Origin: Cenococcum geophilum | Lineage: Eukaryota | Direction: 5' to 3' | Assembly: GCA_050273025.1 (NCBI GenBank) | Contig: CP158635.1 | Span: 7,564,001 to 7,628,000 of the forward strand | Length of the DNA stretch: 64,000 nucleotides | Part shown: one piece after another, positions 12,188 to 52,742 of the stretch | Numbering within the stretch: position 1 is the first letter of the stretch | Layout: each line of letters begins with the position of its first letter | The notes under the pieces: generated by a model | Databases searched by the model: none | The model's input: the letters and a program-made list of their open reading frames with translations, nothing else | What the model was told of the DNA's origin: nothing | Position numbers and translations under genes: made by a program

Positions 12188-13310
12188 ATCTTAGCGTCTA
12201 TAAACGCGCCGTATTTAAATCTACGACTAAACTCAGTATATTGGTAAAGGAGAAGACTTTTATTAATTAGAAGTCGGTGCGCTAATTATAAGAAATAAAT
12301 AAGGACTCTATCTATTAAGTATAGCTTTAGGGCCTCTATATATATATAAGAAAGGTATAGAAAAATAGGAAATAAGGGGAAGGTAATTAAGTTAATAGCT
12401 AAATTAACGGGCAGGTAGCTAAGTTAGGGTAATAAGATAACCTAATTTAGGTTAACAACTTCTTAGACTTAGGGCAATTATACTATTAAATAAGCGTATT
12501 CTAGCATCTCTCTTTTCCGCCTATATAGACGCATTCTAATATAAGGTTAGTTTATACACTAGTTAAAGAGAAGTAAGTTTAACTATCTGCTTTTACTAAT
12601 TTATCCCGCTAGATATAGTGAACTATCCTTATAGTTGCGCTAGCAATTAAAAATAATACTATAGAGTAACAATTCTATCCAACTCCCTTATTCTCTTATT
12701 AACTTATATCTACTAAAGGCACCACCTAATTTAGTCCCTAGTCCTCCCCTAACGGCGTCCTTATAAAATTACGCTGCCCTAATTAGTTTATAGAAAGACT
12801 AGCACTATCTAATCTTTATTTAGTATCCAGATAATACCCGCATACATTAGGAAATTTTTTTTGGGGCTCGTTGTTGCGGCAGGTGGATATAGTTGATAGC
12901 AATTTGCGCAAAACGCACGTTTTATAACAAGTTTGCAGCACCCTAATAGCAATTTGCGCGTTTTATAATAAATTTGCAGCACCTAATAGCAAATTGCGGT
13001 AAAATGCTACCCTATAAATAAATAGTGCGCAAACTGTACGAATTATACGAATTGTACGAATTGTAAAAACTGTACGAATTGTACGAATTGTACGAATTGT
13101 ACGAATTGTAAAAACTGTACAAATTGTAAAAACTGTACAAATTGTAACTATATAAATTATAATTATATTATATAATAACCAAATTATTACATATTTCCAT
13201 AGATTTCTATAGTATACTTTTAAATATATTTATATTATAACTATATAAAATGTAGAGCTATCTACTTTAGGCGTTAAGGGGAAGCCTCTTACGGAGGCTC
13301 TAAATTATCT

Positions 13311-15169
13311 ACCTACTTACCTACCTGCCTACCTGCCTACCTGCCTGCCTGCTTGCCTACCTACCTACCTACCTACCTGTCTGTCTGTCTATGCCTACCT
13401 ATCTATGCCTACCTGTCTGTGCCTACCTGTCTATGTCACCTTGATTCGATCGATCGATCGAATCGTTTATCGTGTTCGCTGGCTGGTCGTTCGAACGGTT
13501 GTCGTGTGGCTCTGGCGACGGTCGTGTGGCGATGACGACGGTCGTCTAGCTCTGGCGACGGTCATCTGGCTCCGGCGACGGTCGTCTAGCTCTAACGACG
13601 GTCGTCTGGCTCTGACGGTCGTCTAGCTCTAGCGACGGTCATCTGGCTCTAACGACGGTCGTCTAGCTCTGGCGACGGTCATCTGGCTTTGGCGATGGTC
13701 GTCTAGCTCTAACGGTCGTCTAGCTCTGGCGACGGTCATCTGGCTCCGGCGACGGTCGTCCAGCTCTGGTGACGGTTATCTGGCTCTGGCGACAGTCGTC
13801 TGGCTCTGACGACGGTCATCTAGCTCTAACGGTCGTCTAGCTCTGGCGACGGTCGTCTGGCTCCGGCGACGGTCGTCTACTAGCTGTCGTTCTGGTGTCT
13901 TCCTAGGTAGGGAGGATATAAGAAAGGGTAAAAAATAAGGTAGCTACCTAGGTGTATATAGGGGGTATACTTGGCAGAGGCACGTATAGAGGCTATCGGG
14001 AATATAGCGGGGACCCAATAGTAGTGTGTCGCGCGCATACACACAAAGGCTTTGTGTAGAGCTTTGTGTAGAGCCTCCGTATGTAGAGCTTCGCGTAGAG
14101 CCTCGTGTAAAGCTTCGCGCAGAGCCTTGTGCAGAGCCTCTATATATAGAGCTTTGTGTAGAGCTTCGTAGAGCTTTATGCAGAGCTTCGTGTAGAGCTT
14201 TATATAGAGCTTTATACAGAGCTTTGTGTAGAGCTTTATACAGAGCCTCTATACGTAGAGCTTCGTATAGAGCTTCGTGTAGAGCTTTGTGTAGAGCTTC
14301 GTGTAGAGCTTTATATAGAGCTTCGTGCCGAGCTTTGTATAGAGCTTCGTGTAGAGCCTTATACAGAGCCTCTATACCTAGAGCTTTGTATAGAGCCTCG
14401 TGTAGAGCCTTATATAAAGCTTCGTGTAAAGCTTCGTGTAGAGCTTCGTGTAGAGCTTTATATAGAGCCTCTATACGCAGAGCTTCGTGTAGAGCATTGT
14501 GCAAAGCTTCGTATAGAGTATTATATAGAGCTTCGTGCAGAGCTTCGTACAGAGCTTCGTGTAGAGCCTCGTGCAGAGCCTCTATACCCAGAGCTTTGTG
14601 TAAAGCCTCGTGTAGAGCCTTATATAAAGCTTTGTGTAAAGCTTCGTGCAAAGCTTCGTGCAGAGCTTCGTGTAGAGCTTCGTGTAGAGCTTTGTGTAGA
14701 GCCTCTATACGCAGAGCTTTGTGTAAAGTATCGTGCAAAGCTTCGTGTAGAGCATCGTGTAAAGCTTCGTGTAGAGCTTCGTGTAGAGCTTTGTACAGAG
14801 CCTCGTGCAAAGCTTCGTGTAGAGCTTCGTGTAGAGCTTCGTGTAGAGCTTTATGTAGAGCTTCGTGTAAAGCTTCGTGTAGAGCTTCGTGCACGAATTC
14901 GTGCAGAACTTCGTGTAGAGCCTCGTGCAGAGCCTTTATACGCAGAGCTTTGTATAGAGCCTCGTGTAAAGCCTCGTGTAAAGCTTCGTATAGAGCTTTG
15001 TGTAGAGCTTTGTGTAGAGCTTCGTATAGAGCTTCATATAGAGCTTCGTGCAGAGCTTCGTGCAGAGCTTCGTGTAAAGCTTCGTGCAGAGCTTCGTACA
15101 GAGCTTCGTGCAGAGCTTTATGTAAAGCCTTATGCAGAGCTTCATATAGAGCCTTATGTAGAGCCTCTG
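13311..15169 (+). repeat. Composite repeat core: (CCTA/CCTG)n, (ctggcgacggtcgt)n, unique ~130-bp linker, (gagcttcgtgca)n 12-mer array
   Basis: Directly visible. The 12-mer array spans ~14050-15169. Confidence 0.95.
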
Positions 15170-15434
15170 CATTAGGAAATTTTTTTTAGGCATATTATTG
15201 CAAGCGAAAATTAGGGTCTGCAAAACCTGCGTAAGTCGCAATTTTGGTAATTTATGGCGATTTGCAGCAATTTGCTACAAACACATAGATAAGGCAGGCG
15301 CGTGCATAGGTAGCCTATGTGTTTGTAGCAAATTGCTGCAAATCGCCACAAATTGCCAAATTTGCGACTTACGCAGGTTTTGCAGACCCCGATTTTCGTT
15401 TGCAACAACGTGCCCAAAAAAAAAAATCCTAATA
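15170..15434. mobile_element. Palindromic MITE-like hairpin with CATCAGG-type ends
   Basis: ~120-bp inverted arms (tctgcaaaacctgcgtaagtcgca / tgcgacttacgcaggttttgcaga) centred near 15302. Confidence 0.85.
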
Positions 15435-16179
15435 TAATAGCTATACTGCGTTAAGTTTAGGTAAATAGGTAAAACAGAATATACACTATTCTATCTCGTA
15501 GGGCTCCCTAGTTAGACGCTATATAAACTACTAGGGCAGATAAAGCTAGTTACTTTTTACCCGTCTAAGCTATAGTAAAATCTATTACCATCTAGTCTAG
15601 CTTTAAAGCGGTAAGCGGCTCTAGCGGATATACTTTATAGCTAATCTTTCTAACTTTCTACCACTACTAGCTAATTACTAGACTTATATAAATATTACTA
15701 GGAATATATATAAAAGGCTTTAAAGCAATTAGGTAACTAGGAATAGTTTTTCTATAGAATCCCTAAGTAAATCTTTACTCTAGCCCACCCGTATCTTAAA
15801 AAGACTAAAAAGGGGCTTTTAACTCCGCCATTTCCTTAATATTGCACATAATATTCTTATCCTCTTTTTCTAAGCGTTAGGGTAATAGCCTTACTATTAT
15901 CCCTCACTAAATAGTAATATTAAACGAGGATAACCAAGTAGCTTAACGCAGACGTTATTTAGCTACTTTTACAAGCATATTAACGGAGGCGCTTACGGTA
16001 TAGAAAGCCTAGCTAATATCTTATAAAACTAACTCTAATAGACACCCTATGTGTAGCAAGAACTCTATCTAAATTATAATTAATAAAATCACCCTTTACT
16101 GATCTAAAGTGTACTTTAAAAAGATAACTATTAAGAACCTAAATAAAAGTTTAATGCCTAGATGTTTATACACCGCTTA

Positions 16180-26562: not shown

Positions 26563-27432
26563 TGTTACGGATTCCGACCGTAGCACCGCCAAGGGCTCGC
26601 CTAGCGAGCCTTGGCACCCACAGTATATAGAGCCACGGTGCCTTCGTACCTCTTTGCACCTTCGTGCAATATCCTGTTGTGTATATAGCCAATGCTATGA
26701 CGTTCCCAGAGCCTCCTAACCGCGCTCCGTGACATTATATTGCACCCAACGACTCGCATAGGCCTGCCTACCGCCTATGGAGCCGGTACGACGACTTTAA
26801 CCCATGCCGACCGTTGGACGACGATTTGATACCCTTAATTCTACCTCTTAATTTCTACCGCATTAACGTCTCTGCCTACTACTGCCTCTACGATTCTACC
26901 TGCCTGCGCACACGACTATAACAATGCCTATCCAATAGCAGCATCTCCGCTTTCCCGCTGTGCGCTTACAACCGAGCAAGACCAGCACCTCTGCTGTCCC
27001 GCTGTAAGGATACTACTTCGACCTAGGACTGCAAACAGTTATCTACGACTTAACGAGCTTGGAAGAACAGTTATAAGATACCTCAGACATCGAGTCATTA
27101 ATCTACCTATTAAATCGTCATCACCCTCGTCAACCGTTCGAGCTACGTTCTGCCAGCGAACGCCTCTAATAAGCTCTGCCAGTCACTAGTGAGCACCACA
27201 GCACCGTACGGAGGGAGGATCTGCCTTAAGGGACTTCGGCTTTGTATAAGGGGGGGGTAGTGTCACGGATTCCGACCGTAGCACCGCCAAGGGCTCGCCT
27301 AGCGAGCCTTGGCACCCACAGTATATAGAGCCACGGTGCCTTCGCACCTCTTTGCACCTTCGTGCAATATCCTGTCGTATACATAGCCAATGCTACGACG
27401 TTCCCAGAGCCTCCTGACCGCGCTCCGTGACA
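26563..27432 (+). mobile_element. TRIM (terminal-repeat retrotransposon in miniature), 870 bp
   Basis: 172-bp LTRs 26563-26734 and 27261-27432 (TG...CA). TSD ctccc. PPT aagggggggg. 526-bp interior with no pol. Confidence 0.93.
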
Positions 27433-28116
27433 CTCCCAGATTTAATTAAGGTTTACCCTATTTTCTTACTAGATAAGCTATAGAAAGCTATAAACGACCT
27501 ATTACCTAGATAAAAGAACAAACCTCCCCTACCGATTTAAGTTAATGGCGACGATGAATAGGAAATTAAAGAAGTACTAGCCTGTAAACTAGTAAGGAAA
27601 ACGCTAAAGTACCGCGTTAGTTAGAAAGGCTATAACCTAGACCCTAGCTAGTACCCTATATAGAACTTTATTAGTAGTCCCTATAAGCTTTAAGAATTCT
27701 ATAGCTATTACCCTAATAAACTAGGACCCCTAAAGTACCTAGACAAGTAGATAAAGTGCTAGTATAGTAAGGACGATAAGCTACTAAAAGAATATAAAGA
27801 TAAGAACGCCCTATAGGCATAATACGGATATATAAAGCCTAAGGGCAGGCTTTTACGGAGGGGGGGTAATATTACGGTACTAGTAGAACTTGGCAGAACT
27901 TAACTGGCAGAACTTAGCAGAGCTTAGTTAGTAGAACTTAGCAGAACTTCGTGGTTACGTAACTAGAGGACCGTATAAAAGAACCCTACTTTGACCGGCG
28001 CTTCTCCTTTCCTTTCTCTAGCTTTAGATTCTTGTTTATAGACAATCCAATCGTACAGGTTTGCGCGTCCCTTATACCGTACTCGTGCCTTAATTAACTG
28101 AGCCGCTAATATATAC

Positions 28117-29352: not shown

Positions 29353-29971
29353 CTAAATTAGCTATCTAAACTATAAGGGCGAACAGAAAATGGCGATTAT
29401 TCTCTTTATATTTGGTTCTTCTTCTCTTTAAAGTCTTTTGGCGTAAGCTTTATAGGCACTGGATATATTTAACTCTGTACTTAATTAGAAGATATTTTTA
29501 GATAAAGGTCGTTAATATATAAGCTATTCTATAGTTAGTGGCTATAACTACTGCTTTATAGACGTGTAAAAGTACTATTTATTTTACACGTTTTGAACAT
29601 AAAATACTTTTACCCCAGCTATAGATCGTAACTCGTCTGCTTTTTTAAAAAGGGTCTTTATTCTTTTACGTAATATCTCTCGTTTTTACTTTGCTTTAGC
29701 TCCTTAAGCCTTTATATTAGAGTTTTGTATTTATAATAAATTGAGAATAGTTCTAGATATACTACTAGAACACTTACCTCCACTCTTGTCACCTATCTTT
29801 AAGTTAGTAGAATTAGTAGAATCTATAATGCTTGTAAAATTAAGGAAATTACTTAACTATTATTTATAATAATAAAAGTAAGTCTATTGTTAAAAAAACC
29901 TATATATAACTATATTTAATTATAACTATTTATAAAACTTAAGTCTACTATTTATAATTTAATAGCCAGTA

Positions 29972-30118
29972 ACGTAGTTAACGGGGTTTTGACCGGTCCC
30001 TGAGTTATAACCGATTTAAAGTTTTACTAGTTATTTGTCGGCGGGTCGGCGTTTTGGCGAACTTTGATTTTCAAATCGGTCATAACCCAGGGACCGGTCA
30101 AAACCCCATTAACCACGT
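29972..30118. mobile_element. pogo/Fot1-like MITE, 147 bp
   Basis: ACGT termini, TA TSD, ~45-bp inverted repeats (ggggttttgaccggtccc / gggaccggtcaaaacccc). Confidence 0.88.
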
Positions 30119-33100
30119 TATATTTATTAAAAAAGATATAAAGAAAGTTCTAAATACTTTAAAGTATTGCTTATTATAATTTTTACTCTTCTACATTCCA
30201 ATAAAGTAAAATCAATTTAAATTATATATTTCTTAACTATTTTACTAGTTATTCTATTGGAAGAATAAATAAGTATTAATAAGTTTAACTTTAAGAAACT
30301 ATAACACTAGAAAAGAGAAGGAGTTTAGCTTGCGTAGCCAGTGCTCAACACTATAGGGCGATAATAGCGAGCCTAGGATTTTGCTCAGAATATTAGATTC
30401 TAGGCAATATATTTTTAAGCCGAAGTAGCTACTAACTAAGAGAGAGTAACGCAGTGTAAGTGGATAAGGGGTTTTTAAGGAGAGGAAATTGTTATATAGC
30501 CTAATTAAATAGAACTTCTGTTAGCTGAGATCTCGTCTAATATATATGCTTAATTAATCTTAGCTTAATTCTCTAGAGCTATTTAAGGCGATCTGTAGAT
30601 ATCTACCTATATTACCTACTTAATAATAGAGTAATACTTGCGAATATTACCATATAAAAACTAAGACAAGATACCCCTATATAAAATACCTCTATATCTC
30701 CCTTTTCTACTTTAATATTAGGTTATAATAAATAAGTAGTGGAGTATATTAGTTTTAAAACAAAAAAGTAAGGAAATATAGAAATTATATAAAAAAACAC
30801 TTCCGTATGCAATATATATAGAAATAAGAAATAGATTCTATGGATTAATACTACATTATAAAATAGAAAGTAAGAGTGCTAAAATACACTATAAGAAAAA
30901 TGCGAGTATAGTACTAATAATTAAGCAACCTACAGCTGTTTTATAAAGAAGTGCAGCTAAAGCGTTATTTAAAGGAATAAGCTGGTTTATAGGGTAAGAG
31001 GTTAATAAGCTACTTAATAGTGAAGAAATTTAAATAGGAAGTGGATTATAATATATAGCATTTATATAACTTATACAAATGTATCTTATTCCAATTGTTA
31101 TATTTTTTAAACTTTTAAACTTATACTTTAAAGATAAAAACTAAAGGCTAGAATTAGTAAAATTACTTATTAGACTTTGTTTTACTAATATATAGAATAA
31201 GAACTCCTTTAATCATCCTTTCTTTACTAGAAATAATTAGAAAAAAAGTATTCCTAGTCCTATACTAGCGCATCCCGTAGCTATATACGCTACTTTCTTA
31301 TATATTTAATTAAAATTTATATCTAATAAACATAATTAAGGAACTAGAAGCTAGTTTTAATAGGTACTAGTAAATTTAGGGAGGTGCTTTTATCTGTTGT
31401 CGTTTTATTAGAATTTAGCTAATTATAAGTATAAGAACGTAGAGCTACTATAGGCTAGAAATATATTCTACGTATAGGATATAATATAAAAAAGAAGAGG
31501 CAAGGAAAGAGGAAAAGAGGTAGTTATATTAGGGGTTGTCACGGAACCCTACCGTAGGGACCTCTATAGGAGAGCCCCGTGCTCTTGCGTATACCTTACA
31601 TACAGCTTATATCAGCTACGCGTAGGTATATCACCTCCTTACGCCCTTGACCCTTACGATCGATCGCGTAATATCTTGTAGACTCCTTAAATACATACGC
31701 TTTATAGCTACTGCCCCCGTTCCATAACATTACGTTACGCCTTTTTTACCACTAACGCTTAGCCTATAACCAATTTTACGTCTCTATAATACTGTAGGTG
31801 CTACTAAAAGTAACGCGTCTATAAATTACCTTACTTTATACTTCTAAGGAACCTATAATAGTAAGATAATATCCCTTACTAGCTACTATATTAAACCTAA
31901 AAAAAATCTAATACCTATACTTAACCTATAACGCTAATTAATCCTAGGAGAATTTAATTTATTAGCCCTAGCCTTAACCCCTAAGGAGACGGACACTAAT
32001 AATATCTTATCTTTTATTATATAACTATAGATAAGTAAATAGAAGGGCTACTACCTATTAAAATTAAAATATAAGACGCCGAGACGTTTGTAAAAATAGT
32101 AGCACGAGACCCTAATAAATACTACCGCCTTCTATAGAACTACTACTTAAAGTTTATATAAGCCGAGATGCGTACTACCTAAGATTGCGATATTATTTAA
32201 GACCTATAAGCTTATAAGGCGCTTACTAATAACACACGTTAAGAAACTAAAAATAACCTCTATATATCTAAACGCGACGTCTAATAGTTAAAGAAGGCTA
32301 AGATTGTACTAATTGCTATAGTTACTAAAAGAGAAGGCATAATTAAATACCTATAATCTTAGCTTAATAAGCACATTTATAATAATGCTGGATACCTCTT
32401 TACTATTTATAACGCCACCTAAGTCTCTACGCCCCTAGTAACTTTACTTACTTAACGCTTAATAGAGGGCTAGCGCTAAGCAGCTTTACCTAATAGAAAC
32501 CCTTACTAAAGCAGGAATAATAAAAGCTATAATAATTGGACCTAAACTACTACCGTAGGGTCTAATATACGCTACCCTAATCTCTTAGTCTTTTAGGGAG
32601 ACCGCAAGGAATATAGCCACTAGAAGATATAAATCCGTAAAAAAACTAACTTTAAGCACCTACCTTTTTCCTATAAAAGATACTAAGATTAGCTATATTA
32701 TTGGGCAAATAAAGGGTATACTATTTAATAGACTCTTCGCCTAATAGGAAACTAGTAGCCCCTAGAAGTAGCAGTCTTACTAAAAAGTCTTTAACGATCT
32801 TAACTTAATATACCGTAATTATAACCTACTAGCTACTAACTAAGCTAAACTACGTGCCCTAAAGATAAGCCCTACTAAATTATTTAATAAATTCTATATT
32901 AAATTCTAGGAATACATTAGAGCTCTCGCCTAAGACGATACTAAAGACTAGGAGGACCTCCTTAAAAAAGTTACTTATTGCCTTAGTTACGCAGCCGCCA
33001 GCCATAACTATAATAATGTTTATAATATAGTAGCAACTCTATAGAAGATTAAACGATAACTAAATTAGATTGCTACTACTAACCTTTACCTACAAACCTC

Positions 33101-35199
33101 TCTATAGAAGTCCTCCGGGCCTACTAAACCTATATATACTAAGCCACTAACACCTACTACCTTAAGTACTACTAGAACTAATATCGATTTCTCTATACTA
33201 ACCTTCCTATAAATACTCCTAGATAGAGAGCGCAAGCTACTCCAGAAACTAAAATGCTGCTATAAATGCTATTAAAAAGGCTATTATCGCGATAACCTAA
33301 ACTGCCTAATAGCTAAGTTTAGTAGCTACCGCCTAATACCTAACCTAATACCCTAAACACTAAATACGTTACTATATACCACTACCGTACAAAATAAAAA
33401 TATAGTAATAGTAGTAAAGTTAGATACGGAAACAGAAAACGCTAAGTCCTAGCCTTAAGTTATAGGTTAGGACGCCCTAATAACAGAAGGATCTATATAT
33501 CGGCTTACTTAATAGATAACTCTATAAAGATAAACGGACGGAAATAGATAGTTTTACCTATAATAGGAACTACTACTAAAAAATAATATAAAAGCCGTTC
33601 TATAATTAATTGCAAAGCTACTAATAAATTTATAAATACCTAATTTATGCGTATTTATAACCTACCTACCTTACCCCTTACCAAAGCCCGCGCCCTATAA
33701 CTCGCTAATAGTAATTATACCGTATAAAAGATTACCTATATAGCATAACTCTACCTAGATATAAATGGGCACTAGGAAGAACTCTAGGCCTATATTATAC
33801 TACTTACTAACTACTCTATTATTCTTGGAATAAACTAGCTTAAATAATACAACCCTACCATTAACTAGAAGAAAAGAGAAGTAACTTTTAACTCTAAATA
33901 CTATAGAGAGACTTGCCTAGGGTATAGCCTAGCTACCTCTATTTACTCCCTAGGATATTAACCTAAGGAACCCCTTATTACTCCACCTACAACTAACTAC
34001 TACTACGTAAGTACCCTAGCCTTTTACCGTATAGTACGTAAGAAAGGCTAAACTATTATTATAGCTTTCTAATTATAACTATATAAGCTTAATAAAGAAT
34101 AAAATTATATCCTCTATAGTAATAAAATAGATATAGTTAACCTTTTAAAAGACAACGCCCCTACGGAACTCTACGGACTTTTACCTTTAGACTTTAAGAA
34201 GTTTATAAAGCTTAAAAAAGGACTTACCAATAAAGAACTCCGCAAGCTCCTCCCTAAGAGGTACTATAACTTTACCAATATATGCTTATAAAAGAGCGTA
34301 AATATACTCCCCCTATATTAACCTAATAACTATACCATTAATATTGAATAAGGAAAAATGCTACCTTATAAGAGATTCTACCTAATATTAAAAGATGAAC
34401 TTCTAATTATAAAAAAGTATATTAACAAGCACCTTAATAAAGGATTTATTTATCCTAGCATATTACTAGCAGCCGCCCCTATCCTTTTTACTAAGAAGCT
34501 AAAAGGAGGTATTTAATTCTATATTAACTATAGAGGACTTAACGCTATTATAATTAAAAACTAATACCCAGTACCGCTTATATATAAGACCCTTAAGCGG
34601 TTTAGTTAAGCCAAAATCTATACTAAGCTTAATATTATCGCCGCCTTTAACTATTTCTAAATATAGGAAGGTAATAAATAGAAAACCGCATTCGCATTAC
34701 GCTTTGGCCAATTTAAATATACTATTATGCCCTTTAGCGTATATAACGGCCTAGGCACCTTCTAAAGCTATATTAATAACGCCTTATAGGACTACTTTAA
34801 CGACTTCTACTCTGCGTACCTAGATGATATACTTATTTATAATAATAACCCCTTTAAGTATACCGAACATGTTTAAAAGGTCCTATAGCGCCTTAGGGAC
34901 GCAGGACTTTATATTAATTTAAAGAAATGTAAATTCTTAGTTATAGAAGTAAAATACCTTAAACTAATTATTACTACTAAGGGTATCTATATAGACCCCA
35001 AGAAGGTACGTATAATTATTAAATAGTAAGCCTTTAATTATATTAAGGACGTATAAGCCTTCCTTAGTTTTGCTAACTTCTATTAGAAATTTATATATAA
35101 CTTTTTAGGCGTAGTAGCACTACTTATAGCAATAATACAAATAAAGGGCCTTTTTATAAAAGGAAGAAAAATATACCTACGCTTTACCTAAACGCCTAA

Positions 35200-35935
35200 G
35201 GGATCGTTCGGTTGCAAATGAGGTCCACATCATAATCTGTTCGATCTGTGCGTCTTTTAGTGTCGCTCGTTTTGTAATTAGTGGCGGCTACCACCGTGAC
35301 TTAATTGAATCAGTAAATGAGTCGATCGTTCGGTAAGCCTCTAGATGAGACTCCATATTTGACTCCGCACAATGGGTTATTGATTTTAGTGGGCGATTTA
35401 AGTGACCTCTGCCACCAGGCCTCTATCGTGACTCCCTGCTTTGGTGTAGCAATGGAGCCTCCTCCACGGCCAATACCCTCTCGCCGGTTGACCTTTTCTA
35501 CACCTGCGCCAACCTCCCGTACGAGCCGCAGTAGAGTTACCGCGACGCCCGCCGGAAACAAGCTTATCGCGATTACGAAGGTTAAGATAATGATATTATA
35601 TAAGGCTTGCAAATGCGACAGCAGTATCGCGATTGGGGCGTGCGGAGTCGCCATATTATAAGAAGTCGTTACTTTGGCATATGCGAGAGCTCCAGAATCA
35701 ATATGGAATATGGGGCAGGAGCTCGAGGCTCCTTATTGAAACGGTGCCAAGAACCTCATTTCAACTACTGTATACGGTATAGCTTGCAAATTTGACGCGC
35801 TTACCGATATGGAGGAGCTCCATATTCAAAAGTCGTCATATTTACCGAACGACAACCTCATATTCATATTTGAGCTCCATATCGGTTAAATATGGAGCCT
35901 CCATATTCAATATGAAGTTGCAACCGAACGATCCC
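35200..35935. mobile_element. PIF/Harbinger-type non-autonomous element, 736 bp, little RIP
   Basis: Perfect 18-bp TIR gggatcgttcggttgcaa. TAA TSD at 35197-35199 and 35936-35938. Subterminal ccatat repeats. Confidence 0.92.
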
Positions 35936-38388
35936 TAAATATAAGAAGACGTTCTAAGACCTTAAAAATGCCTTTACTAAAGCACTTATCTTAGCTTACT
36001 TTATACTAAAACAATAACTTTACCTTAAAACTAACTCTTCAGACTACGTTAACGTAGGTATCCTTTCCTAAATAGGTAATAACGGTCTCCTTTACCTAGT
36101 CGCATTCTACTCGTCTAAGCTTATACTATAAGAGTATAACTATAAGATCTATAATAAAGAATACCTTATAATTATATAAGCGTTTAAAGAATTCTAACCA
36201 GAACTCTCCTTAGTAGAGCTTAACTAGCTAACTAAAGTCCTTACGGACTATCGCAACCTTAAGTACTTTATAACTATAAAGTAGCTAAACTAACGCTAAG
36301 TAGTTAGAACGAGTTCCTCTTTAGTTTTAACCTTAAAATTATATATAAACTAGGAGTATAAGATACTAAACCTAATAGCCTAATATACCGCTTATAAGGC
36401 CTTCTTTAGTTTAAAGATAACCCTTATAATTAGTTCTAATAATAGATAATCCTAAAAGCACGAAATTTAGCCTTAGGCATACTACCTACAATAGAGCTAA
36501 CTATACCCTAGCTTTATACTATAGAACTAAAGTTACCTCCTAAAATTAATAAGCTTATTACTACGGCATATAACGCCTCTATTAACCTATTACTATATTA
36601 ACTTATTACCGCAAAGACCGCTAGCGCCCGTACGCTACCTATTAACCTCTAAAGCTTAGGCCAGATTAATATAGCAGCTTTAAAAGTAAAAGAGAATAGG
36701 CTCTATTATAGAGGCCGCCTATTTATCCCTAACTTAGAAAATCTATAACGGCAACTAATTTAAATAGCCTACGACCTCCGATTAAGTGGCTACTTAGGTA
36801 AAAAAGGAACTTATAAGCTTCTTAGCTAATGCTACTTCTAGCTAAAAATAATAGACTTAATTAAACACTTTATAAGTACCTACTATAGTTATAAGCGCGC
36901 CAAAGCCTTTAATATAAAGTACTAAGGACTACTATACCCTCTACTAGTACCTATATAACGATAGGCAGATATTGCTATAGATTTTATTATAGACCTACTA
37001 CCCTATAAATGACATGGCCGTACCTATAATAATATCCTTATAATAATATACCAACTTATAAAAGAGCGCCACTACGTCCTAACCGAAGGCGTAGCCGTTA
37101 GTAATGTTACTAACGCTTTTCTCTGTAAAGTTTACCGACTATATAGGTTACCTAACTTAATTACGTCCGACTAAGGTATATAATTTAACTCTAATATATA
37201 GAGACGAATCTGCTAACGCCTTAGTATCTCCGTTAAGATATCTATATCTTTTTATTATAAAACTGCTAGGCAACTAGAAAACGCTAATACTAGTATAAAA
37301 GCGTACCTACAATAGGTAGTCGCCTATAGTTAAGATAACTAGGTAGATTACCTCCTACTAGGTAAATTCGCAGCGAATAACTATATCTTAACCACTATAG
37401 GACTTACCCCGTTCTTTATAAATAAGGGTTATTACCCCTAATCCGGTATAGAGCTACTAGAACCTATTAATAAGAAACTACCATATAGAAAACGCCTTAA
37501 GATGCTACTTACTAACCAATATACAGACTATATAAAAAATCTACTCAACTACTGTAAGGGAGAAATGGCCTAGGCTTAAGTAAAGCAGGCCTACTTTGCT
37601 AACTATTATAAAACGCCACCACTGGAAATGCGTGTTAGCAACTAGGTATAGCTAAATATACGTAATATCTCTATATAGAGGCCTATAAAGTCACTTAATT
37701 ATAAGAACCTTAGCCCCTATTTAATTAAATAAGTTATTAATAGGGGAGCCGTATATAAGCTAGAACTCCTACCTACCCTAACTACTCGTAGGATATAGCC
37801 CATATTTTACCTATAGCTACTATACCTCTATTAGCCTAACCCCTTACCGGGATAGATATAGCCTAAACCCCTACTAGTACTAATTTAAGATAAGAATAAA
37901 GACGAGAACTATAAGGAGTGGACTATTAAACAAATTATTAACTTTAAATACTTTAGCAAAGGTAGAGGACAACGGCTCTACTATAGAGCTATATACATAG
38001 GATTCGATATAAATTAGCTAAAATGGCAACTATAGGAAGACTTTGAAAATGCAAAGGATCTAATTAGCGACTTTTACTACGCAAACCTATAGAAACTAGG
38101 CCTAAGCAGAGACTTTATACCTAATTCTTTATAAAAGCCTATATAGAGTTAAACCGTTATACATTACTACGTAAGGGTAAATTACCGTTAGATTGCCGTT
38201 AAATTGCAGTAAAGTGCGATTACGTAACCGGAATATTGTTAAGATGTCTAGGAACTTCGACCGGCGGTTAAAGTTATCTAATTAGTCGGATTCTTAGATG
38301 CTAAGCCCTATTATATAATGTTATTTTAAACCTTTAGCAATACCCCCTTGTTTCTTCTTTTCTATACCTTAAGTGTCCCTTCTATATA

Positions 38389-39409
38389 CATCAGGAAAAT
38401 GTTCATGCCTCCTGACAGTACTGACAGGCTCCTGACAGCTCCTGTCAGGGCTGCCAGGATCTCCAGGAGACCCTCACACTCGGTTTCCTGTCAGGAGCCT
38501 GTCAGGAGGCCGCCCGGACCAAACGGACCAAACGGACCTCCAGGACCTCCAGGACCTCCAGGACCATCAGGACCATTAGGACAATTAGGACAATTAGGAC
38601 AATTAGGACAATTAGGACAATTAAAATAATTAAAATTCTAGATTTTAAAATGAGGTATACTAATACTCCAGTATTTACAGCAGTTAAAATATAAAAATCA
38701 GGTTAATTTTAGGCCCTATTCTATATACACAATGCTTTAAGCCATCTAAATAATCCAAATCGATCCTTCCTACCTACCACCTATGGCTGTGTCTACTCGG
38801 GCGTCAAGCGATCGATCGAGGAGACGAGGGGTAATCTCTCGCAGAGGCTCCAAACCGTCGATTGGCGGTGTTCCCGATGATCCGCCGGCCGTGTACTGAT
38901 TTCCTAACTAGGCCTAGTGCCTGTCCTGCCTGTCCTGCCTGTCCGACCGTCCTACCTGTTCGTGCCTACTGTCTGTGCCTACCTGTCTGTGCCTGCCTGT
39001 CGTGCCTACTTGTCTATGCCTACCTGTCTGTATCTATAATTCGGGGGAGATGTCGGCCCGATCGAAGGCTCTGCTTGATTTGATTGCGATTAATTGTATT
39101 GATTCGAATCGTTCTCTATGGGCGTTCGCTGGCTGTACGTTTGAACGGTGGTCGTCTGGGGTGCCTCCCTAAGAGGCCTTAATTCGATTTGATTTGGTAA
39201 CGGGATAATATCAAGGCTCTGGTTCGATTCGATCGATTGAATTGATCGTGGTGTCCGCTGGCTGGTCGTTCAAACGATTATCGTCTGGCTCTGGCGACGG
39301 TGTCTGGTTCTGGCGACGGTCCTCTCCTACCTGCCTACCTACCTACCTGTCTGCCTACCTACCTACCTACCTACCTACCTACCTACCTACCTACCTACCT
39401 ACCTACCTA

Positions 39410-39453
<44 letters not shown>

Positions 39454-40749
39454 CGTCAGTGTCTGGTTTAATTCGGGGGAGGGGCCGGCCTAATCGAAGG
39501 CTCTGATTGATTCGAACCGTTCTCTATGGGTGTTCGCTGGCTGTACATTCGAACGGTAGTCGTCTGGGGTGCCTCCCTAGGAGACCTTGATTCGATTCGG
39601 TGAGCCGATATCGAAGCTCTGGTTCAATTCGATCGATCAATTGATTGAATCGTTCGTGGTGTTTGCTGGCTGGTCGTTCGAACGGTCGTCGTCTGGTTCT
39701 GGCAACGGTCGTCTGGTTCTAGCGACCGTCTGGTTCTAGCGACCGTCTGGTTCTAGCGACCGTCTGGTTCTGGCGACGGTCGTCTGGTTCTGGAAACGGT
39801 CATCTCGTTCTCGCAACGGTCGTCTGGTTCTGGCGACGGTCCTCTGCTGGTTGCCGTTCTAGTGCCTCCTAAGGTAGGGAGGATGTAAGGTAAAAATAAG
39901 GTGGCTACAAAGGGGGTAACTTGGCAGAGGCACGTGTGGCAATCGGGAATATAGCGGGGACCCGATAGTAATGTGTGCGGAGCTTCGTGTAGAGCCTCCG
40001 TACGCAGAGCTTCGCGCAGAGCCTCGTGCAGAGCCTTTGTACGTAGAGCTTCTTCGTATAGAGCTTTGCGCAGAGCTTCGTGTAGAGCTTCGTATAGAGC
40101 TTTATGCAGAGCTTCGTGCAGAGCCTCTGTACGTAGAGCTTTGTGTAGAGCCCCGTGTAGAGCTTCGTGTAGAGCTTCGTGTAGAGCCTCTGTACGCAGA
40201 GCTTCGTGTAGAGCCTCGTGTAGAGCCTCGTGTAGAGCCTCGTGCAGAGCCTCGTGTAGAGCTTCGTGCAGAGCTTCGCGTAGAGCTTCGTGCAGAGCTT
40301 CGCGTAGAGCTTCGTGCAGAGCTTCGCGTAGAGCTTCGTGCAGAGCCTCGTGTAGAGCTTCGTGTAGAGCCTCGTGTAGAGCTTCGTGTAGAGCTTCGTG
40401 TAGAGCTTCGTGTAGAGCTTCGTGTAGAGCTTCGTGCAGAGCCTCGTGCAGAGCCTTAGTAGTGTTGCTTGAGGGGTGTGCATAGGATGTTGCTTTGGGT
40501 ATCCTGCCAGGAACCTGACAGGACGATCAGGAAATACTAGTTTCCTGTCAGGACGATCAGGAAAATCAAAGATCCTGTCAGGACAATCAGGACAATCAAG
40601 ATCCTGGTAGGCTCCTGGCAGGACAATCAGGACGATCAAGATCCTGGTAGGCTCCTGGCAGGAGCCTGTCAGGACGACCAGGACGATCAGGAAATCAAAA
40701 TCCTGCCAGGAGGCCTCCAGGATCTTGGCACCCTAACAAAATGCTGATG
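38389..40749 (+). mobile_element. CATCAG-terminated non-autonomous element, copy 2 (least mutated), inserted in the Gypsy-3 3' UTR
   Basis: ta|catcagg...gctgatg|ta. 9-bp caggacaat/caggacgat subterminal repeats in both arms. Same composite core (~38920-40455). Confidence 0.85.
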
Positions 40750-41002
40750 TATATATAGTAACTATAGCGTCGCCAGAGCTCCGCCTCTATAAGAGGGGGG
40801 GTAGTATTACGGAACCCCACCGTAGGGGCCTCTATAGGAGAGCCCCGTGCTCTTACATACACCTCATATACAGCTTATATCAGCTACGCGTAGGTATATT
40901 ACCTCCTTACGCCCTCGACCCTTACGATTAATCGCGGAACGTCTTGTAGACTCCTTAAATACGTACGCTTTATAGCCACTACCCCCGTCCCGTAATAGGG
41001 GT

Positions 41003-43022: not shown

Positions 43023-46000
43023 TATATAATTACAGCACGTAGTATACCAAACGCGTTGTTACACGTTTAGTGCACCAACTACTTATATACTAACTAATTA
43101 GGGGGAAGCGCGTCAGTATATAGACTACGTAGTCTACCTTAATAGAATTAATAATTACTACTATCTAAAAGAGCATACGATACTATACGTATTTCGTGCC
43201 CCTAGATATAGCTTACTTGTATTATTAAATTAATATAAACACTAATTAGTAAGCGCGCACAGATTAGCAATTACTTAACACCTCTCCCCAAGCAATATAT
43301 AATAGCGACTACCCGTTTAATCCTAGTACGACCTGCTAGAAGGTTGGAAGTTGGGGATTACAGACCATATTACCATCTCTGTATACTTATTTAAGTCTTA
43401 GTATAGTTTACTAGAAGTTTATAAATATAAATATAGACCTTCACGGAACCTCTTACCCTCCTACAAACTATTACGGAACTATTAATTGCCTTTACGGACT
43501 ATTAAAAGACCTTTTAAACTATTACGGACCCGTTAATTGATTTTACGGACCGTTATAAAACCTCCTCCACCCGCTATAAGCTACTACTACCCGTTATAGC
43601 TTATATGGACATACTACGCTATATAATATAGTAGATATAAGCAAGTAAATTAACGAAGGTTAAAAGAAGTGGAGTTAAGGAGTCGACCTTATGTCTGCAA
43701 ATACTATTAACGACTATATTAATTTCAAAATCCTTAAATACGGACACTTTAAGCTTCTAAATAATAATCTATGGGAATAATATAAGGAAGACTTTGCGGA
43801 CTTTACGGAAGCTATCTTTAAGGCTTATAACTTTATAGCTACCCGTAACCTATAAACCCTCTTATATTACTAAGGTATATGGGTTAAAAAGAATAGATAA
43901 GTTACTATTGCACGGCCTCTATATAATATACTACGTAAGGAGGACTAAACGGAATAGACTAAAGAGCAGATTCTAGATTATATTAAAACTAGCGGACTCT
44001 TTGCCTCTTTTAAACTAAATAGGATCTCCGGTTTTATAGACGACCTATTTAACTAAATTTGTCCTATAGACTAAAGAGATCTTAAAATTAATCTTATGGG
44101 CTAAAGTATACCTAGCACTTAAGTTATAGACCGTAATACCCTTATAAACTAAAATACGGACTAAAGCCCTTCTGTCGCTTAAGTTATAGATCTGTAAACT
44201 ACTTAAGTAAAGACCTATAGTAAGGAGCTAGCTAACCTAGCTAAGCTCTATACTGACGAATCTAAATATAGCGGTAAAAATAATAACTTTAACTTTAAAC
44301 TAACTATCTTTACGGACCTTTATTAGAAGGCTAATATTCCTAAATAGGAGTTTAACTAAGCCTACTCTACTATACTGCGCGGCCTAGCCCTTAACCACTA
44401 TTACACTAACATTAAGAGTAACCCCCTTAGTGTCCCCTTTAATAAGCTATATAAGGCTATACGTAACTACTTTAAAGGCCTAGAATATAAGCGTAATATC
44501 CTTACCTAATAGAATGCGATTAAGTTACGGATTATAATTAATAAGAATACTAAAAAGTTAATTATAGAGTGCTTGCAAATTCTTATTAAAGACCTCTAGC
44601 ACCTACAGCACAGCTTTAATGTTAAGCTTTAAATAGACGACTTCTTATATAACAAACTTATTACAATTTACTAGGAAGTAGAGCCCTGTAAATATGCCTA
44701 TTATAAGCCTACAGATACCTTAGCTGGCCTTATTAATAATTTATGGTCCTTTATTATAACGTACGAAGTTTTAAACCCACTAGGTAGTACTTAAGCCTTT
44801 ATTATAGACCTATAAAACCCATAAGCTAACTTAAATGCCTACTTTATAGACCGCCGCTACCGCTAGCAGTACCTATACCGACTAAGTCCTACCTGTAACC
44901 CCCGTAGTAACTCCTATATAAAAGTATACCCCTATAAATAAACTAGCTAGAAGTGCTTTGTGTGCGGTAAGGAAGGATATTAGTCTATAAGGCATACCTA
45001 GGAAGAGTGTAATAAGTCTAAGAAGAGATTTAATAGCCGGATTAACTAGTTTATCTTAGACTATAAAGGAAAGGAAGCGGAAGAGTCTCTTAACGAGTTA
45101 ATAGAAGCCCTTATAATTAACTTTAACTTAAACACTTAGGAATAGGAGACCTTAGAGACGTTCCTAACTGCTTTTAGACCTTTTATAGACGGCTAAGCCT
45201 TTAATATTACGACCGTATTAGCCAACCGCTCCTTTATACACTTAATCGCACCTAAAAACTAGCCCATAAGTATACTTATTAGATCTATTATAGACGTTAC
45301 AGACCGCAAATAAGACCTATTTGCATATATTACTACAGAACGCTATACCCCTAAAGAATTCTATAGCGTTATAATTGATATAGGTGCCTCTAAGAAGTCT
45401 ACTATAGGTTACGGATAATACCTTATATATAAGACCACCATAAATAATAATATAGATATTAATACTATGTAAACTAGGGCCGTAAATGTCTAATTTGGCA
45501 TCGGCTCAACCGCATTAATTAGATTAGTTATAGTTAAGACCCTAATTAGCCTAGTTAACTTCCACGTAGTAAAAGCGGACACCCCTTTTCTACTCTGTCT
45601 TATAGATATAGATAGGTTATGGGTTTACTATAACAATGTTACGGACACCTTAATTGGCCCCGTAACTGCCCTAAGAAATAAGTACATTACCCCATCAACC
45701 GCATAATAATTTAGACACCCGTTCCTTATATAGGGAAAGACTTTATAGACCTATATTTAGGAATCTTTTAACTATAACCCGTGCTACCTTACTAGTACTA
45801 AATCTACCGCCTATACCGCCGTTTCGGCCACCCGTTAGCCGAAAAGCTGTATAGAGTCCTTAAACGCTCTGGACATAACAACGTTAATAAGAAGGTAATT
45901 AACCACCTAACTAAATACTATTCCTTCTGCTAGAAATATAGACGTTCCCTAAGCCGATTTAAGTTCACCCTTTATAAGGATTTTAATTTTAATTACTTAG

Positions 46001-49000
46001 TATATATAGGTATTATATACATTAACGGCAGCTTAGTATTATATATAATTAACGAGGTAACCCGCTATTAAGCCGCCCGTTAATTGTAAAATATATTTAT
46101 AAAATATACTTGGGATATTTTACGGACCTGCTAGATTAACATATACGTTAGACCCCCTAAGTATATTACCTATAACGCCGGTAGGAACTTTATTAGTAAG
46201 GAATTCTAATAGTATGCTACGGCTATGGCTATTTTAATAAAAGCCGTGCTAGTTAAGGCGCACTAGTCCGTTAGGCTTATTAAGTAAGCTTACCTAGCTT
46301 TATAGAGAGCTTATTAGATTATTACGGATAAGTATAAGGATATTTAAAGGGAACTAGCTTTATAGATGGCCGTAAAAGCCGTTAATAACACTGCTGGCCC
46401 TAATAGACTAGTACCTACCCTCTTAGTTTACGGAGCTTACCTAAGGATAAGCAACCTAGGCCCTCCTACCCTATCTATTATAGAATAAGTAGCTACAATA
46501 TGGAAGGTAATGGCCAAAATAGTTAAATTATAGGCTAAATAAGCTGTTAATAATGCCTTATATTACCGCAACGAACCTAATATAACCTTAGTTTATAACC
46601 TCCCGCTTAATTCTAAAGTCCTTATATAGTGTAAGAGTGGCAACTAAACTAGACCTTATTGTTTACTAGCTATAGAAGACGAAACGTACTGTATATAACT
46701 TCCTAGTAGACTAACTAACTTTAGAAACACGTCCGTAAAACCCTACCTTTGGTCCAAAAATGCCTATACTATTGAACTAGATAATCTAGAAGCACCCACT
46801 AAACCAGATAAACTAGAAGTACCTTTGCCTACTTTAGAAGTCCCTTAAAACCGTATTAAACCTGCTATAAAGCGTAGTTAAGGACGCCCCTAAAGCACTT
46901 TATAACTAAGAACCCCGTAATAGAGAATTACCTAACCTTTATAGGTATATCCGTAAGGCAAATTCTACCTATAGATATATTAGTTTTAGTATAGGAAACA
47001 CTTTTTACGGACTTACGACGTAAGGAGATTAATAAACTACTTAAAAAGGGTGTTTTTACAGCTGTAATAGAGAGAGACGTTCCGCAAGGCGTCTGTATAT
47101 TTAACTTACGCTTTATTAATAAAATTAAGCACCCTAGTATTAATAAAGCCTTTAAAAAATTAAGGCTTGTTATATAAGCTTATAATAGCTAGAGAAAAGA
47201 CTTAGTCCTTATATAATCGCCTATAATTTAATAGGTTAGTTAATGGATTATATTTATACTTACGCCTAGACTATAGCAAACTAAACCTATAGCCCTCTAC
47301 TTATAGGACATCTCGTAAGCTTATATATAGTCTAATACCTACCTAAGTAGAAACATCTTTATACGACCATCCCTTAAGCTTAATTTATAACTAGGAATAA
47401 TTTTACGGGTTATAAAACCCCTTTACAAAGTACTAAAAGCTAAAAACCACTAGTTTAAAACATATTATTAGTATTACGTTAGTAAACTTAATATAGAATA
47501 GTTAACCTATAACCCCTGCCTCCTATATACCCTATTAAACGGCCTTAGTATTATTGGACTTTAAACAGATAATACCCTCTTTTTAGCGAACTAGACTTTT
47601 GCGAATACTAAAGAGACTAAACTATAAAAGGCTAGGTTTCTAGCAAAGCTATAAGAGTAGTTAACTAAGCAGACTCTAATTAAGTTTAACGGAGGTTTAA
47701 TTACATAAAAGGGCAATCTAATTTAGCTAACTTAGAAACGCTAATCTTAAAACCTAAGGCTTATTATAGTAAAGCCTATAAACCTTACTAGCTCCCGCGG
47801 AGAGACCCGTAAGACTATAAATATAAAGAACTAATACGTTGCATAGCGTGTAAGAGGCGCCTATATTACTATAGTTTGTTAACCTAAATCTACCTATAAT
47901 TTATTCTTTGCGGCCCAGGTAATAGATCTATAAGAGGAAAATATTAAGCAGCTAAATAAGCGTATTTAGTAGTAAATTAATAATATAATAAGAGGACTTA
48001 CTTTTAAACCACTAGACCTAAATTTCCTTAGCGTACTAGTATTTATAGACGCCTCCTTTACTAATAACAGGGACCTATTATCGCAAATCGGCTTTGTAAT
48101 TATACTTACGGACTATAATTAGGATATAAATATACTCTACTAGTCTTTAATTAAATATAAACGAGTAACCCGCAGTATACTAGCTTCTAAGCTATATGCA
48201 CTAGCTTATGGCTTTAATATAGGAGCCGTAATTAAGTTAATAACCTAGAAGATCCTATAACTGGAGCAATTACCCCTAGTCCTATGCACTGATTTAAAGT
48301 CCCTCTATGACTATATAGTTAAACTAGGCATAATATAAGAGAAGAGGCTTATAGTTAACCTAATGTACTTACGTTAGGCCTATAAACAACGTGAGATTAT
48401 AGAGGTTAAATAGATTAGCAGCGGAGATAACCTAGCGGATGCTATAATTAAGGCAAAGCCGTGCTAAGCTTTTAAACCCCTAATTAACATAAATAAGCTT
48501 AATCTAAAGGTTATAGAATAGGTGGAATGAGACTAATGGAGCACTTATGGTTTATTTACGGCCCGTTAGAAGGCCGTATAGTTTATTTATAGTCTGTTAA
48601 AAGGCTATACGATTTATTTTACGGGCCGTAAGTAGGACTTACGGCTAGCTTAAAGCACCGTTTAGAAGGCAGCCTAAAAGGCACCTTAGGAGGGATTTCC
48701 TATGTATTTCTTTTATGTTTTACGGTTCTAATAAGGTAATTACGGAGGCTATATACAAGTGGGTCTATCTTTAAGTGCCGCCAGTGTATAATTATAGCAC
48801 GTGGTATACCAAACGCGTTGTTACGCGTTTGGTGCACCAACTACTTATATACTAACTAATTAGGGGGAGGCGCGTTAGTATATAGACTACGTAGTCTACC
48901 TTAATAGAATTGACAGTCACCACTATCTAAAAGAGCATACGATACTATATATATTTTGTGCCCCTGGATATAGCTAACTTGTATTATTAAATTAATACAA

Positions 49001-49003: not shown

Positions 49004-49078
49004 ATATATAATAGTTATTTATAATTAGTACAAAACTCTAACTATTTTAATCTAAGTTTTAAAATATAATCTAGCGCC

Positions 49079-49480: not shown

Positions 49481-49893
49481 GCGCTATCTAGTTAGGATTC
49501 CACCTAATTAAAGTAAAGCCTTTATTTAGTCCAACTTTATACCTTATACTTCTAAGTTTTATTAGGAGTTACTAGTTATAAAGTCTAGATTTTTAATCTC
49601 CTGCTATAACTATAGTAAGCCGCATAACACAATAGTGAAATTTAATTTACAATATAAATTAACTAAATTATACTTAAACTTGACTAGTAAAATAGTTTTA
49701 TAACCCTAAATAAATTATCACTATAACGCTACTATATAGTAGGAACGTGCACATTTATAAAAGCTTTCAACTTATATATTACTAGCTATCTCTATTCTTA
49801 TATTATACGTATATAAAATTGAATTATATAATACTATAAATTAATCCTCCTCTTACTAGCCTTAAATAGTTATAGTACAGCATCTATTATACA

Positions 49894-51500: not shown

Positions 51501-51589
51501 CTAGTAGCCTTTAGTTTTAAAGTCTTAGAGATAGAAGACACCTATAGCGCTTACTAATAACCCTATTGGCCTTTAGTCTAATTAGTAGG

Positions 51590-52230
51590 TTCTCTGCACG
51601 AAGTTCTACACGAGGCTCTGCACGAAGTTCTACACGAAGCTCTGCACGAAGCTCTGCACGAAGCTCTGCACGAAGCTCTGCACGAAGCTCTGCACGAGGC
51701 TCTACACAAGGCTCTACATAAAGCTCTGCGTACAGAGGCTCTGCACAAGGCTCTGCGCGAAGCTCTGCGTACGGAGGCTCTACACGAAGCTCTGCGTACG
51801 GAGGCTCTACACGAAGCTCCGCATCGGGTCCCCGCTATATTCCCGATAGCCTCTACACGTGCCTCTGCCAAGTATACCCCCTATATACACCTAGGTAGCC
51901 ACATCATTTTTTACCCTTCCTTACATCCTCCCTACCTAGGAAGACACCAGAACGACAGCCAGCAGACGACCGTCGCCGGAGCTAGACGACCGTCAGAGCC
52001 AGACGACCGTCGTCAGAGCTAGACGACCGTCGCCGGAGCCAGATGACCGTCGCCAGAGCTAGACGACCGTCGTCATCGCCACACGACCGTCGCCAGAGCC
52101 ACACGACAACCGTTCGAACGACCAGCCAGCGAACACGATAAACGATTCGATCAATCGATCGAATTAAGGTGACATAGACAGGTAGGCACAGACAGGTAGG
52201 CACAGATAGGTAGGCATAGACAGATAGACA

Positions 52231-52272
<42 letters not shown>

Positions 52273-52742
52273 TAGGCAGGCAGGTAGAAGAGAACCGTCG
52301 CTATATATTAAATTATCTAAAATAATATAATTTATTTTGCACTAACTGTATAAACTAAGTAAATACTATTAAGTGTATAGGAAGAGCAAGATATATAAAA
52401 TGCGCGAAGAGGGCATTATATATAGAATATATAAGGAGGGCATTATATATTAATTGCGCATTAAGTGCAAAATGCGTAATTAGCTGCACTGTATTATTAA
52501 ATATAGCAGTATGCCGCACTATATTATTAAATATAGTAATATACCGCACTACATTATTAAATATAGCAGTATGCCGCACTATATTGTTAAATGCAGCAGT
52601 ATACCGCACTGCATTGTTAAATACAGCAGTATGCCGCACCTTAGTTAATACTATACGCTACACATTATAGTGCGCAGAATGCGCATTTGGCCGCCAAATG
52701 CTGCCAAATGCTGCAAAAATGCTAGTAAATTTTTTCCTAACG
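51590..52742 (-). mobile_element. CATCAGG-family element, copy 3, truncated at one end
   Basis: Reverse-oriented core (tgcacgaagctc)n, linker, (gacgaccgtcgccagag)n, (GGCA)n. 30-bp arm repeats 52490-52640. End aaattttttcctaacg|ta. Confidence 0.8.

Follow-up and report, generated by a model that had tools for sequence, protein, structure and literature searches.

A non-coding core carried by the ends of several Plavaka-type transposon families in Cenococcum geophilum

The DNA considered here, called the window, is a stretch of 64,000 nucleotides of Cenococcum geophilum (assembly GCA_050273025.1, contig CP158635.1, here contig C1, positions 7,564,001-7,628,000), whose genome comprises 178 Mb in 7 contigs. 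It contains three transposable elements (copies 1, 2 and 3) that share an ordered, non-coding core and differ in the arms that flank it. Very probably, they belong to one non-coding lineage that has repeatedly taken up the ends of five or more helper families and is moved in trans by the transposases of Plavaka elements of 20-29 kb. The window has TpA/ApT ratios of 1.1-2.5 and (CpA+TpG)/(ApC+GpT) ratios mostly of 0.3-0.5, and the three elements reach 0.8-0.9 for the latter in most of their bins. Such dinucleotide indices are the signature of mutation of the repeat-induced point mutation (RIP) type in filamentous ascomycetes.

Three elements with a common core

In all three copies the core follows the same order: a (CCTR)n microsatellite, a ttcgatcgatcg/gttcgaacgg segment rich in palindromes, an array of 17-20-mer ctggcgacggtcgt units, a linker and an array of 12-mers. 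This ordered and non-coding arrangement, described in a first-pass annotation of the letters alone, was confirmed at the positions given in Table 1. Copies 1 and 3 are 94% identical across 325 bp. The long open frames over the 12-mer array were discarded as coding sequence, since the frames follow from the repeat. Genome-wide, the linker gives 1,225 matches with its better-conserved motif (control 0) and 714 with another (control 2), and longer terminus and linker patterns exceed chance (controls 0-2); the 10-mer terminus alone, with one mismatch allowed, is not above chance in the window (17 found vs 12.9 expected). For the typing of arms, a set of 107 distinct cores was used, with both termini visible in 53. 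The 12-mer array, previously counted as a fixed part of the core, is present in the three window copies but missing after the linker in 16 of these 107. Complete A-armed copies (L171, L188) and both D-armed copies are among the 16 (arm sets A to E are described below), and some of the 16 are cut short or interrupted. The array is an optional, not an invariant, part of the core.

Table 1. Positions in the window of the three elements, their parts and the long terminal repeat (LTR) retrotransposon that carries copy 2.
Feature	Position	Strand	Description
Copy 1	12845..15434	+	complete non-autonomous element; ends of long Plavaka family C; TA duplication
Copy 1 left arm	12845..13250	+	41-mer and 9-mer tgtacgaat repeats; homologous to left end of 21.0-kb family C element (72-91% identity, two pieces)
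Remnant of the core's leftmost segment, copy 1	13276..13303	+	present also behind the A arm of copy 2; 75%/28 bp, E 0.017
Copy 1 core	13309..14020	+	(CCTR)n 13309-13435; palindrome-rich segment 13441-13515; ctggcgacggtcgt array 13501-13878; linker ~13885-14020
Copy 1 12-mer gagcttcgtgca array	14049..15169	+	91 units; optional core part; diverged relative inside long family A
Copy 1 right arm	15170..15434	+	265-bp foldback with inner and outer terminus; distal half matches right end of long C (88%)
Host LTR retrotransposon	31541..40995	+	Gypsy-type domain order; carries copy 2 directly upstream of 3' LTR
Copy 2	38389..40749	+	complete; both ends of 29.3-kb long family A; two tandem core units; TA duplication within (TA)n run
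Copy 2 left arm	38389..38770	+	caggac repeats; first 230 bp match one long A end (77%)
Copy 2 core	38770..39980	+	longest form: leftmost segment, CCTR, mid and palindrome segments twice, ctgg array, linker
Copy 2 RNA-covered stretch	39453-39985		stranded RNA reads
Copy 2 12-mer array	39980..40457	+	38 units
Copy 2 right arm	40459..40749	+	ending TTTTGCTGATG-type; last 180 bp match long A's other end (82%)
Copy 3	51590..52742	-	E-armed; truncated inside array at 51590; right arm gone
Remnant of inner part of family B left arm, copy 3	52304..52331	-	between E arm and core; 27/28 bases, E 2e-10
Copy 3 left arm	52335..52742	-	CGTCAGG-type terminus, 30-mer repeats; matches left end of long E-type element (90%/126 bp)

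Copy 2 behaves as a mobile unit placed cleanly inside an LTR element, as had been proposed. The LTRs of the host lie at 31541-31727 and 40809-40995, and the insertion sits 59 bp upstream of the second one; a reverse transcriptase-RNase H domain is followed by a weak integrase-H2C2 match. At locus L173 the empty site was found: there the left and the right flank meet directly, with an overlap of 2 bases, which indicates that copy 2 is a discrete insertion.

Termini, arms and long elements with the same ends

Among the 53 complete copies, 50 have an identical 2-bp duplication on both sides and 2 show 3-bp identity; one of the three copies without a 2-bp duplication reads CA/TA, as RIP would give. 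The 50 duplications comprise TA (29), AA (5), TT (4), AC, GG, AG, AT and TC (2 each), CA (1) and TG (1). The TA flanks noticed earlier are real in copies 1 and 2, but TA is not obligate. Elements of the Tc1/mariner type, with an obligate TA target, would account for the 29 TA duplications, including those of copies 1 and 2; this hint was not borne out and has practically no chance of being right, as it is refuted by the 21 duplications other than TA, in a genome that is TpA-rich through RIP-type mutation, and by the match of the ends to Plavaka-coding elements.

The ends read CATCAG, CATCGG or CGTCAG, being CATCAG-type in A and C arms, CATCGG in B and CGTCAG, a one-base variant of the CATCA-type terminus, in D and E. 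The CATCAGG terminus once ascribed to all three window copies holds for A- and C-type ends, but copy 3 begins CGT(C/T)AGG and the right end of copy 2 reads CATCAGCATTTT. According to the parts of the source that were covered, PlavakaB, in the CMCT clade, is defined by 2- or 3-bp duplications and 5'-CATCA..TGATG-3' termini; its published consensus starts include CATCAGGAAAA, CATCAGCATTTT, CATCAGCAAAA and CATCGGGG, one family measures 24 kb, and the families were reconstructed from Agaricomycotina (Kojima, 2025; PMC12730594). The CATCGG start of family B compares with CATCGGGG among these. The elements studied here have the same 2-bp duplication, CATCA..TGATG termini and Plavaka domain as that published group, and differ in that two families end in CGTCAG. 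PlavakaA ends (TGT..ACA) are unlike them. Because of the duplication, the termini and the existence of Plavaka-coding long elements with the same ends, the three copies are classified, on sequence features, as putative non-autonomous PlavakaB elements, the termini being what places them in B rather than A. The family is thus no longer unclassified, and the previous guess on the CMC/EnSpm side was sound. EnSpm/CACTA in the strict sense, which is marked by CAC termini, a 3-bp duplication and a Transposase_21 domain, was rejected, given 3-bp identity in only 2 of 53 copies and no candidate for PF02992 (Transposase_21) in the genome; this last negative is uninformative, as no control genome matched the profile either.

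The Plavaka profile PF18759 has 123 matches in the genome, all with stops, the family A match reaching E 1e-66. In the transposase frame of family A a CxxC is visible. Twenty of the 123 matches were inspected at 10 kb and 13 at 5 kb, some being extended, and this search recovered the long same-end elements for which a search had been suggested. Long A measures 29.3 kb including a 2.3-kb insertion and has the duplication CT; long B has 20.0 kb, long C 21.0 kb (4 copies) and long D 21.0 kb, with the same termini and 2-bp duplications, and a PF18759 transposase lies inside each of the four. These transposases are deeply diverged, with identities of 42% (A vs B), 31-33% (A vs D) and 28-33% (A vs C). 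The arms of copy 1 match both ends of long C, those of copy 2 both ends of long A, and the left arm of copy 3 matches a long E-type element whose interior is common to three loci.

Five arm sets (A-E) are found on the core. The elements measure 1.3-2.9 kb, with arms of 250-500 bp that have their own subterminal repeats. As had been claimed for the window copies, the arms are unrelated: the five left arms have no alignable sequence past their first 9-11 bases (best pairwise E 0.037, first 300 bases of each). In the 107 cores the arm pairs are A/A 29, C/C 20, E/E 14, B/B 3, D/D 2 and E/B 1, with one arm typed in 37 and none in 1. The arms had been called interchangeable, and this is correct in that five sets occur on one core, but they come as matched pairs from one helper in 68 of the 69 copies typed on both sides; the sole mismatch, L064, joins an E left arm to a B right arm, with TA on both sides. 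The core does not occur mostly without arms, as a Plavaka arm is present on 106 of the 107, the exception being L029. In a position-ordered sample, the first 30 exact linker matches by genome position, all 30 cores have an arm (A 7, C 14, E 7, B 2). Metagenome contigs provided 120 linker-bearing stretches, most of them too short to type; 77 have a typed arm, all from the same five sets, and the 16 typed on both sides are matched in every case.

Some minor features of these loci can be added. L029 is an A-type core with a palindromic AT-rich stretch on its left and a little-mutated, coding-like insertion on its right, possibly a sixth arm type or two insertions. Long A (L144, L106, L131, L142), C (L133, L117, L134) and D (L148, L139, L125) each have an internal tandem duplication of a 3-5-kb module with 69-85% identity, and long A contains a 1.8-kb foldback. 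Segments of 600-840 bp are common to long A/B, A/D and C/D, and the piece common to A and B may be a helicase fragment, to judge by resemblance. In long D (L125:7276-7515, L154) two right termini stand in direct order with a piece of the A right arm between them, as if the outer end had been taken from a D-armed core copy. In L212 an E-type foldback end lies within a B-like arm, and the core is not nearby, suggesting that free foldback ends exist.

A succession of arms on one core

Sequence comparison indicates that the core is foreign to the helpers. The linker has no match in long A-D or in the E stretch by BLAST or profile search (best nhmmer E 1.7), and the palindrome segment is also absent from long A-D; a plain internal-deletion derivative of one helper was ruled out on these grounds. 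The only core part with a diverged relative in a helper is the 12-mer array, inside long A (69-81% identity). A source of the core was not found.

The junctions between arms and core differ according to the arm set. A-armed copies have the longest core form; C and D arms join the core at its leftmost segment, and B and E arms join further in, without that segment. The remnant of the leftmost segment in copy 1 is a weak match by itself, with longer versions in L162, L170 and L180. Old arm pieces are also found: a remnant of the A right arm lies inside the D right arm, and one of the B left arm inside the E left arm. These leftover pieces would record the order of re-arming, which is likely to have led from A-type cores to D and C, and from B to E. 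One linker haplotype, after normalisation for RIP, is common to 22 C-armed and 10 E-armed copies. Copies that share it differ upstream of (CCTR)n and again right after the linker, and differences on either side point to exchange in or beside the repeats. A linker tree of 101 rows places A on one side of a weak branch and D as a pair, with B, C and E interleaved. Crossed arm and linker types are seen in L245, L276, L293 and L311, where a B/E-like linker may follow an A left arm, or an A-like linker a B left arm; these are further signs of exchange.

These data bear on whether arms and helpers could have diverged in place together, around a core that is an old remnant of an ancestral long element, without any swapping. 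Such a history would agree with the 12-mer array relative inside long A and with A-armed and D-armed linkers that each form one side of a branch, yet it is highly improbable, since the arms lack alignable sequence and the helpers are 28-42% identical while the linkers are identical across C- and E-armed copies. Moreover, none of the four complete long elements contains the linker, whose divergence is far below that of the helpers. It is also improbable, to a slightly lesser degree, that the core is a mobile element of its own, Helitron/Helentron-like or a mobile satellite, which inserted separately into small Plavaka derivatives. Its tetranucleotide microsatellite, short hairpins and tandem arrays are reminiscent of Helentron-associated elements, and L029 offers one core in 107 without a typed arm; against this, the remaining 106 have a Plavaka arm, no free copies with constant ends are seen among the 107, the position of the core boundaries depends on the arm set and lies within the A-armed form, pieces of old arms accompany the core, and target duplications are found only outside the arms.

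The preferred history, in which one core is re-armed by successive helper families, supports the earlier idea of non-autonomous DNA transposons that retain the core and turn over their arms. It may have involved three steps. In the first, capture, a core-bearing copy would come to lie between the left and the right end of another family, either by nesting in a long element or by adjoining a free foldback end; deletions would then trim the old arms and the helper interior, and the new helper would mobilise the unit. In the second, exchange, the microsatellite and the arrays would offer homology in any register, so that gap repair, ectopic recombination or template switching through the repeats could swap core segments between differently armed copies. 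In the third, retention, core-bearing units would out-multiply plain deletion derivatives.

It is important to note that several observations weaken this reconstruction. The A-right fossil amounts to 35 bp at 80% plus short repeats. The linker tree was built from 140 columns; of its 51 inner branches 3 are well supported, and the bootstrap did not settle. Being short and poorly resolved, it leaves the order and direction of re-arming soft. All long elements seen are riddled with stops and give no evidence of an active helper, and the transposase of the E helper was not reached over the 21 kb followed, in which nested LTR elements begin at position 1449. Finally, for the first 100 exact linkers listed, a terminus upstream is among the matches listed in 70; two of the other 30 were inspected, one being an A variant and the other a B-type core beside another MITE (a miniature transposable element with inverted repeats).

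Non-autonomous DNA transposons are usually seen as deletion products bound to one helper, and here one interior is combined with five end sets, four of which could be assigned to deeply diverged helpers. The way in which such elements switch from one helper to another thereby becomes testable in one genome, as does whether a conserved interior, in line with proposals made for coral CMITEs and for the core domains of short interspersed elements (SINEs), aids transposition or only recombination. Some 1,200 copies would be misclassified if repeats were annotated by their ends or their interior alone.

Core-bearing and core-less derivatives

For the families E, D and B, copies were sampled from their termini rather than from their cores, which avoids circularity. 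The 21 exact E left termini on contig C1 lead to a core in 16 cases and to a long interior in 3, with 2 interrupted; the 18 D termini lead to a core in 12 and to a long interior in 3, with 3 lacking an assigned interior. Core-less short copies number 0/21 and 0/18, respectively. The 20 B termini comprise 15 core-type copies, 1 interrupted copy with the linker 2.7 kb further on, 2 long and 2 other copies, so that core-less short forms amount to at most 2/20. Nine of the 15 core-type copies have an exact linker listed downstream and 1 more has the palindrome segment visible. Among the termini listed, an exact linker lies downstream in 13/18 for A, 18/23 for C and 20/45 for B. Terminus counts add up to 147+521+344+102+208 = 1,322 (the C count includes some right ends) vs 1,225 linkers; this total is close to linkers plus long elements, in line with scarce core-less forms.

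The C>T/G>A load of arms is about halved in core copies with respect to long copies (B 0.067 vs 0.128, D 0.073 vs 0.122, C 0.069 vs 0.157), a comparison based on 3-5 long copies per family and on core copies mostly picked by similarity, and it could be explained by size or age. A transversion clock is blurred by subfamily differences and leaves age and RIP escape unseparated.

RNA run X21 gave 6,147 reads of 9.3 million records on 39453-39985 of copy 2, with a depth of up to 2,700. The first mate favours the plus over the minus strand by 8- to 276-fold in all 30 bins, and the reads, mostly 90-95% alike, represent many variants. One-sidedness across haplotypes argues that these reads are neither DNA carry-over nor random read-through, and by the usual library convention the RNA would run from the array toward the left arm. 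The RNA contig runs X9 and X11 indicate element presence only. An intron was considered and rejected, as its CT..AC joint stands in DNA contigs too. A structured RNA was likewise rejected: the minus strand of 39453-39985 folds weakly (z -2.39), with the arrays contributing to the score. An Rfam search with copy 2 found nothing above threshold, the one mir-9243 match in the array having 36.6 bits vs 83. A promoter scan gave no match with a bacterial model, which is unsuited to a fungus.

The first-pass annotation had deduced that the core has a function. The scarcity of core-less derivatives and the stranded RNA favour such a function, but it stays something that we infer. For the retention step taken alone, it is slightly more probable than not that the core gives help in cis, for instance by being transcribed or by keeping chromatin open close to the ends. 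This evidence is limited in several ways: 3 of the 15 B core-type copies are known only up to a CCTR-like array, and for two others no exact linker is among the matches listed; the strandedness was read without a silent control and with an assumed library direction; and neither a start nor an end of the RNA was found in the reads over 39453-39985.

A serious rival, with an appreciable but less than even chance, keeps the same re-arming history and makes the core a passive passenger, the commonest small cargo, often nested, whose arrays ease recombination and which profited from founder bursts. It would fit the free variation of the left boundary and of the arrays, the loss of the leftmost segment in B and E, the 16/107 cores without a 12-mer array, the lack of an Rfam family above threshold and the weak folding (z -2.4). 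Nested copies do exist (L155 lies inside a long C element), and small size or youth alone could explain the lower C>T/G>A load. A passenger is harder to reconcile with the number of events involved, as an internal deletion takes a single event whereas an insertion and two trims are required for a derivative with the core, and such derivatives nevertheless dominate in the three families sampled from termini; nor does it predict RNA oriented with the element across many haplotypes. Under a broader functional reading, which is put forward tentatively and has a less than even chance, the core might be a portable module that works in cis, either as an internal promoter or by opening chromatin, that brings its own handles for recombination, and that allows a single non-coding parasite to persist beyond its helpers. 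As parts of this same joint proposal, such a module might move between transposase lineages 28-42% identical by taking both ends of each, and, in a genome with a RIP-type defence, might outnumber the deletion derivatives of every helper sampled. If true, this portable module would be a DNA-transposon counterpart of the tail exchange of CORE-SINEs, with helpers, intermediates and RNA all at hand.

Related patterns have been described in other organisms. In the CMITEs of Acropora corals, according to the parts of the report covered, the interior is more conserved than the ends and of unknown origin, with about 1,600 copies; one copy is discordant between terminal inverted repeat (TIR) and interior, and an interior function was proposed for these elements of about 100 bp, piggyBac type and TTAA target (Wang et al., 2010; PMC2872659). 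Whereas only TIRs of 13-14 bp differ there, with one family tied to a helper, here whole arms of 250-500 bp give way to others, the helpers of four arm sets are identified, and the steps are documented by fossils and a mixed copy. The coral elements are a precedent for the pattern, and the arm succession is unusual. A conserved middle is kept in MER6 and in those SINEs that have highly conserved domains (CORE, V, Deu), and tail or module exchange is listed among the hypotheses in the passages covered (PMC6887750). These SINEs work alike in that the helper-recognition part is exchanged, and differ in being retroelements in which one tail is exchanged; MER6 is one mariner MITE with a V domain. 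The elements here are not members of this group. Plavaka elements with 2-bp duplications were already reported from an ascomycete, a truffle, with CATAC termini and, in the passage covered, no shared core or arm exchange (PMC12581995). A non-autonomous family with a shared core is likewise not seen in the parts covered of the PlavakaB paper, on which its supplement may bear (PMC12730594). No report of non-autonomous Plavaka with a shared core was found in the open full-text literature, most subscription papers being beyond reach, and non-autonomous PlavakaB families and CGTCAG ends were not found in the papers searched.

Other repeats are present in the window. The host of copy 2 contains a 736-bp little-mutated insert (35200-35935) with 17-bp TIRs and TAA on both sides, which we take to resemble PIF/Harbinger; parts of it have matches inside long B and long C and at window positions 63834-63947. 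A 150-bp palindromic MITE-like element with TA flanks lies at 29970-30120, and a related end abuts a B-type core in L244. At ~26563-27436 a GC-rich, little-mutated element of ~870 bp with two ~170-bp direct repeats is nested in an LTR retrotransposon and looks, by eye, like a miniature LTR element. Two arrays without relation to the core occupy 2948-3818, first a GC-rich one of 15 40-mer units and then a perfect one of 8 26-mer units, and two inverted copies of a 5.6-kb repeat are found at 43089-48587 and 53844-59387 with 82% identity.

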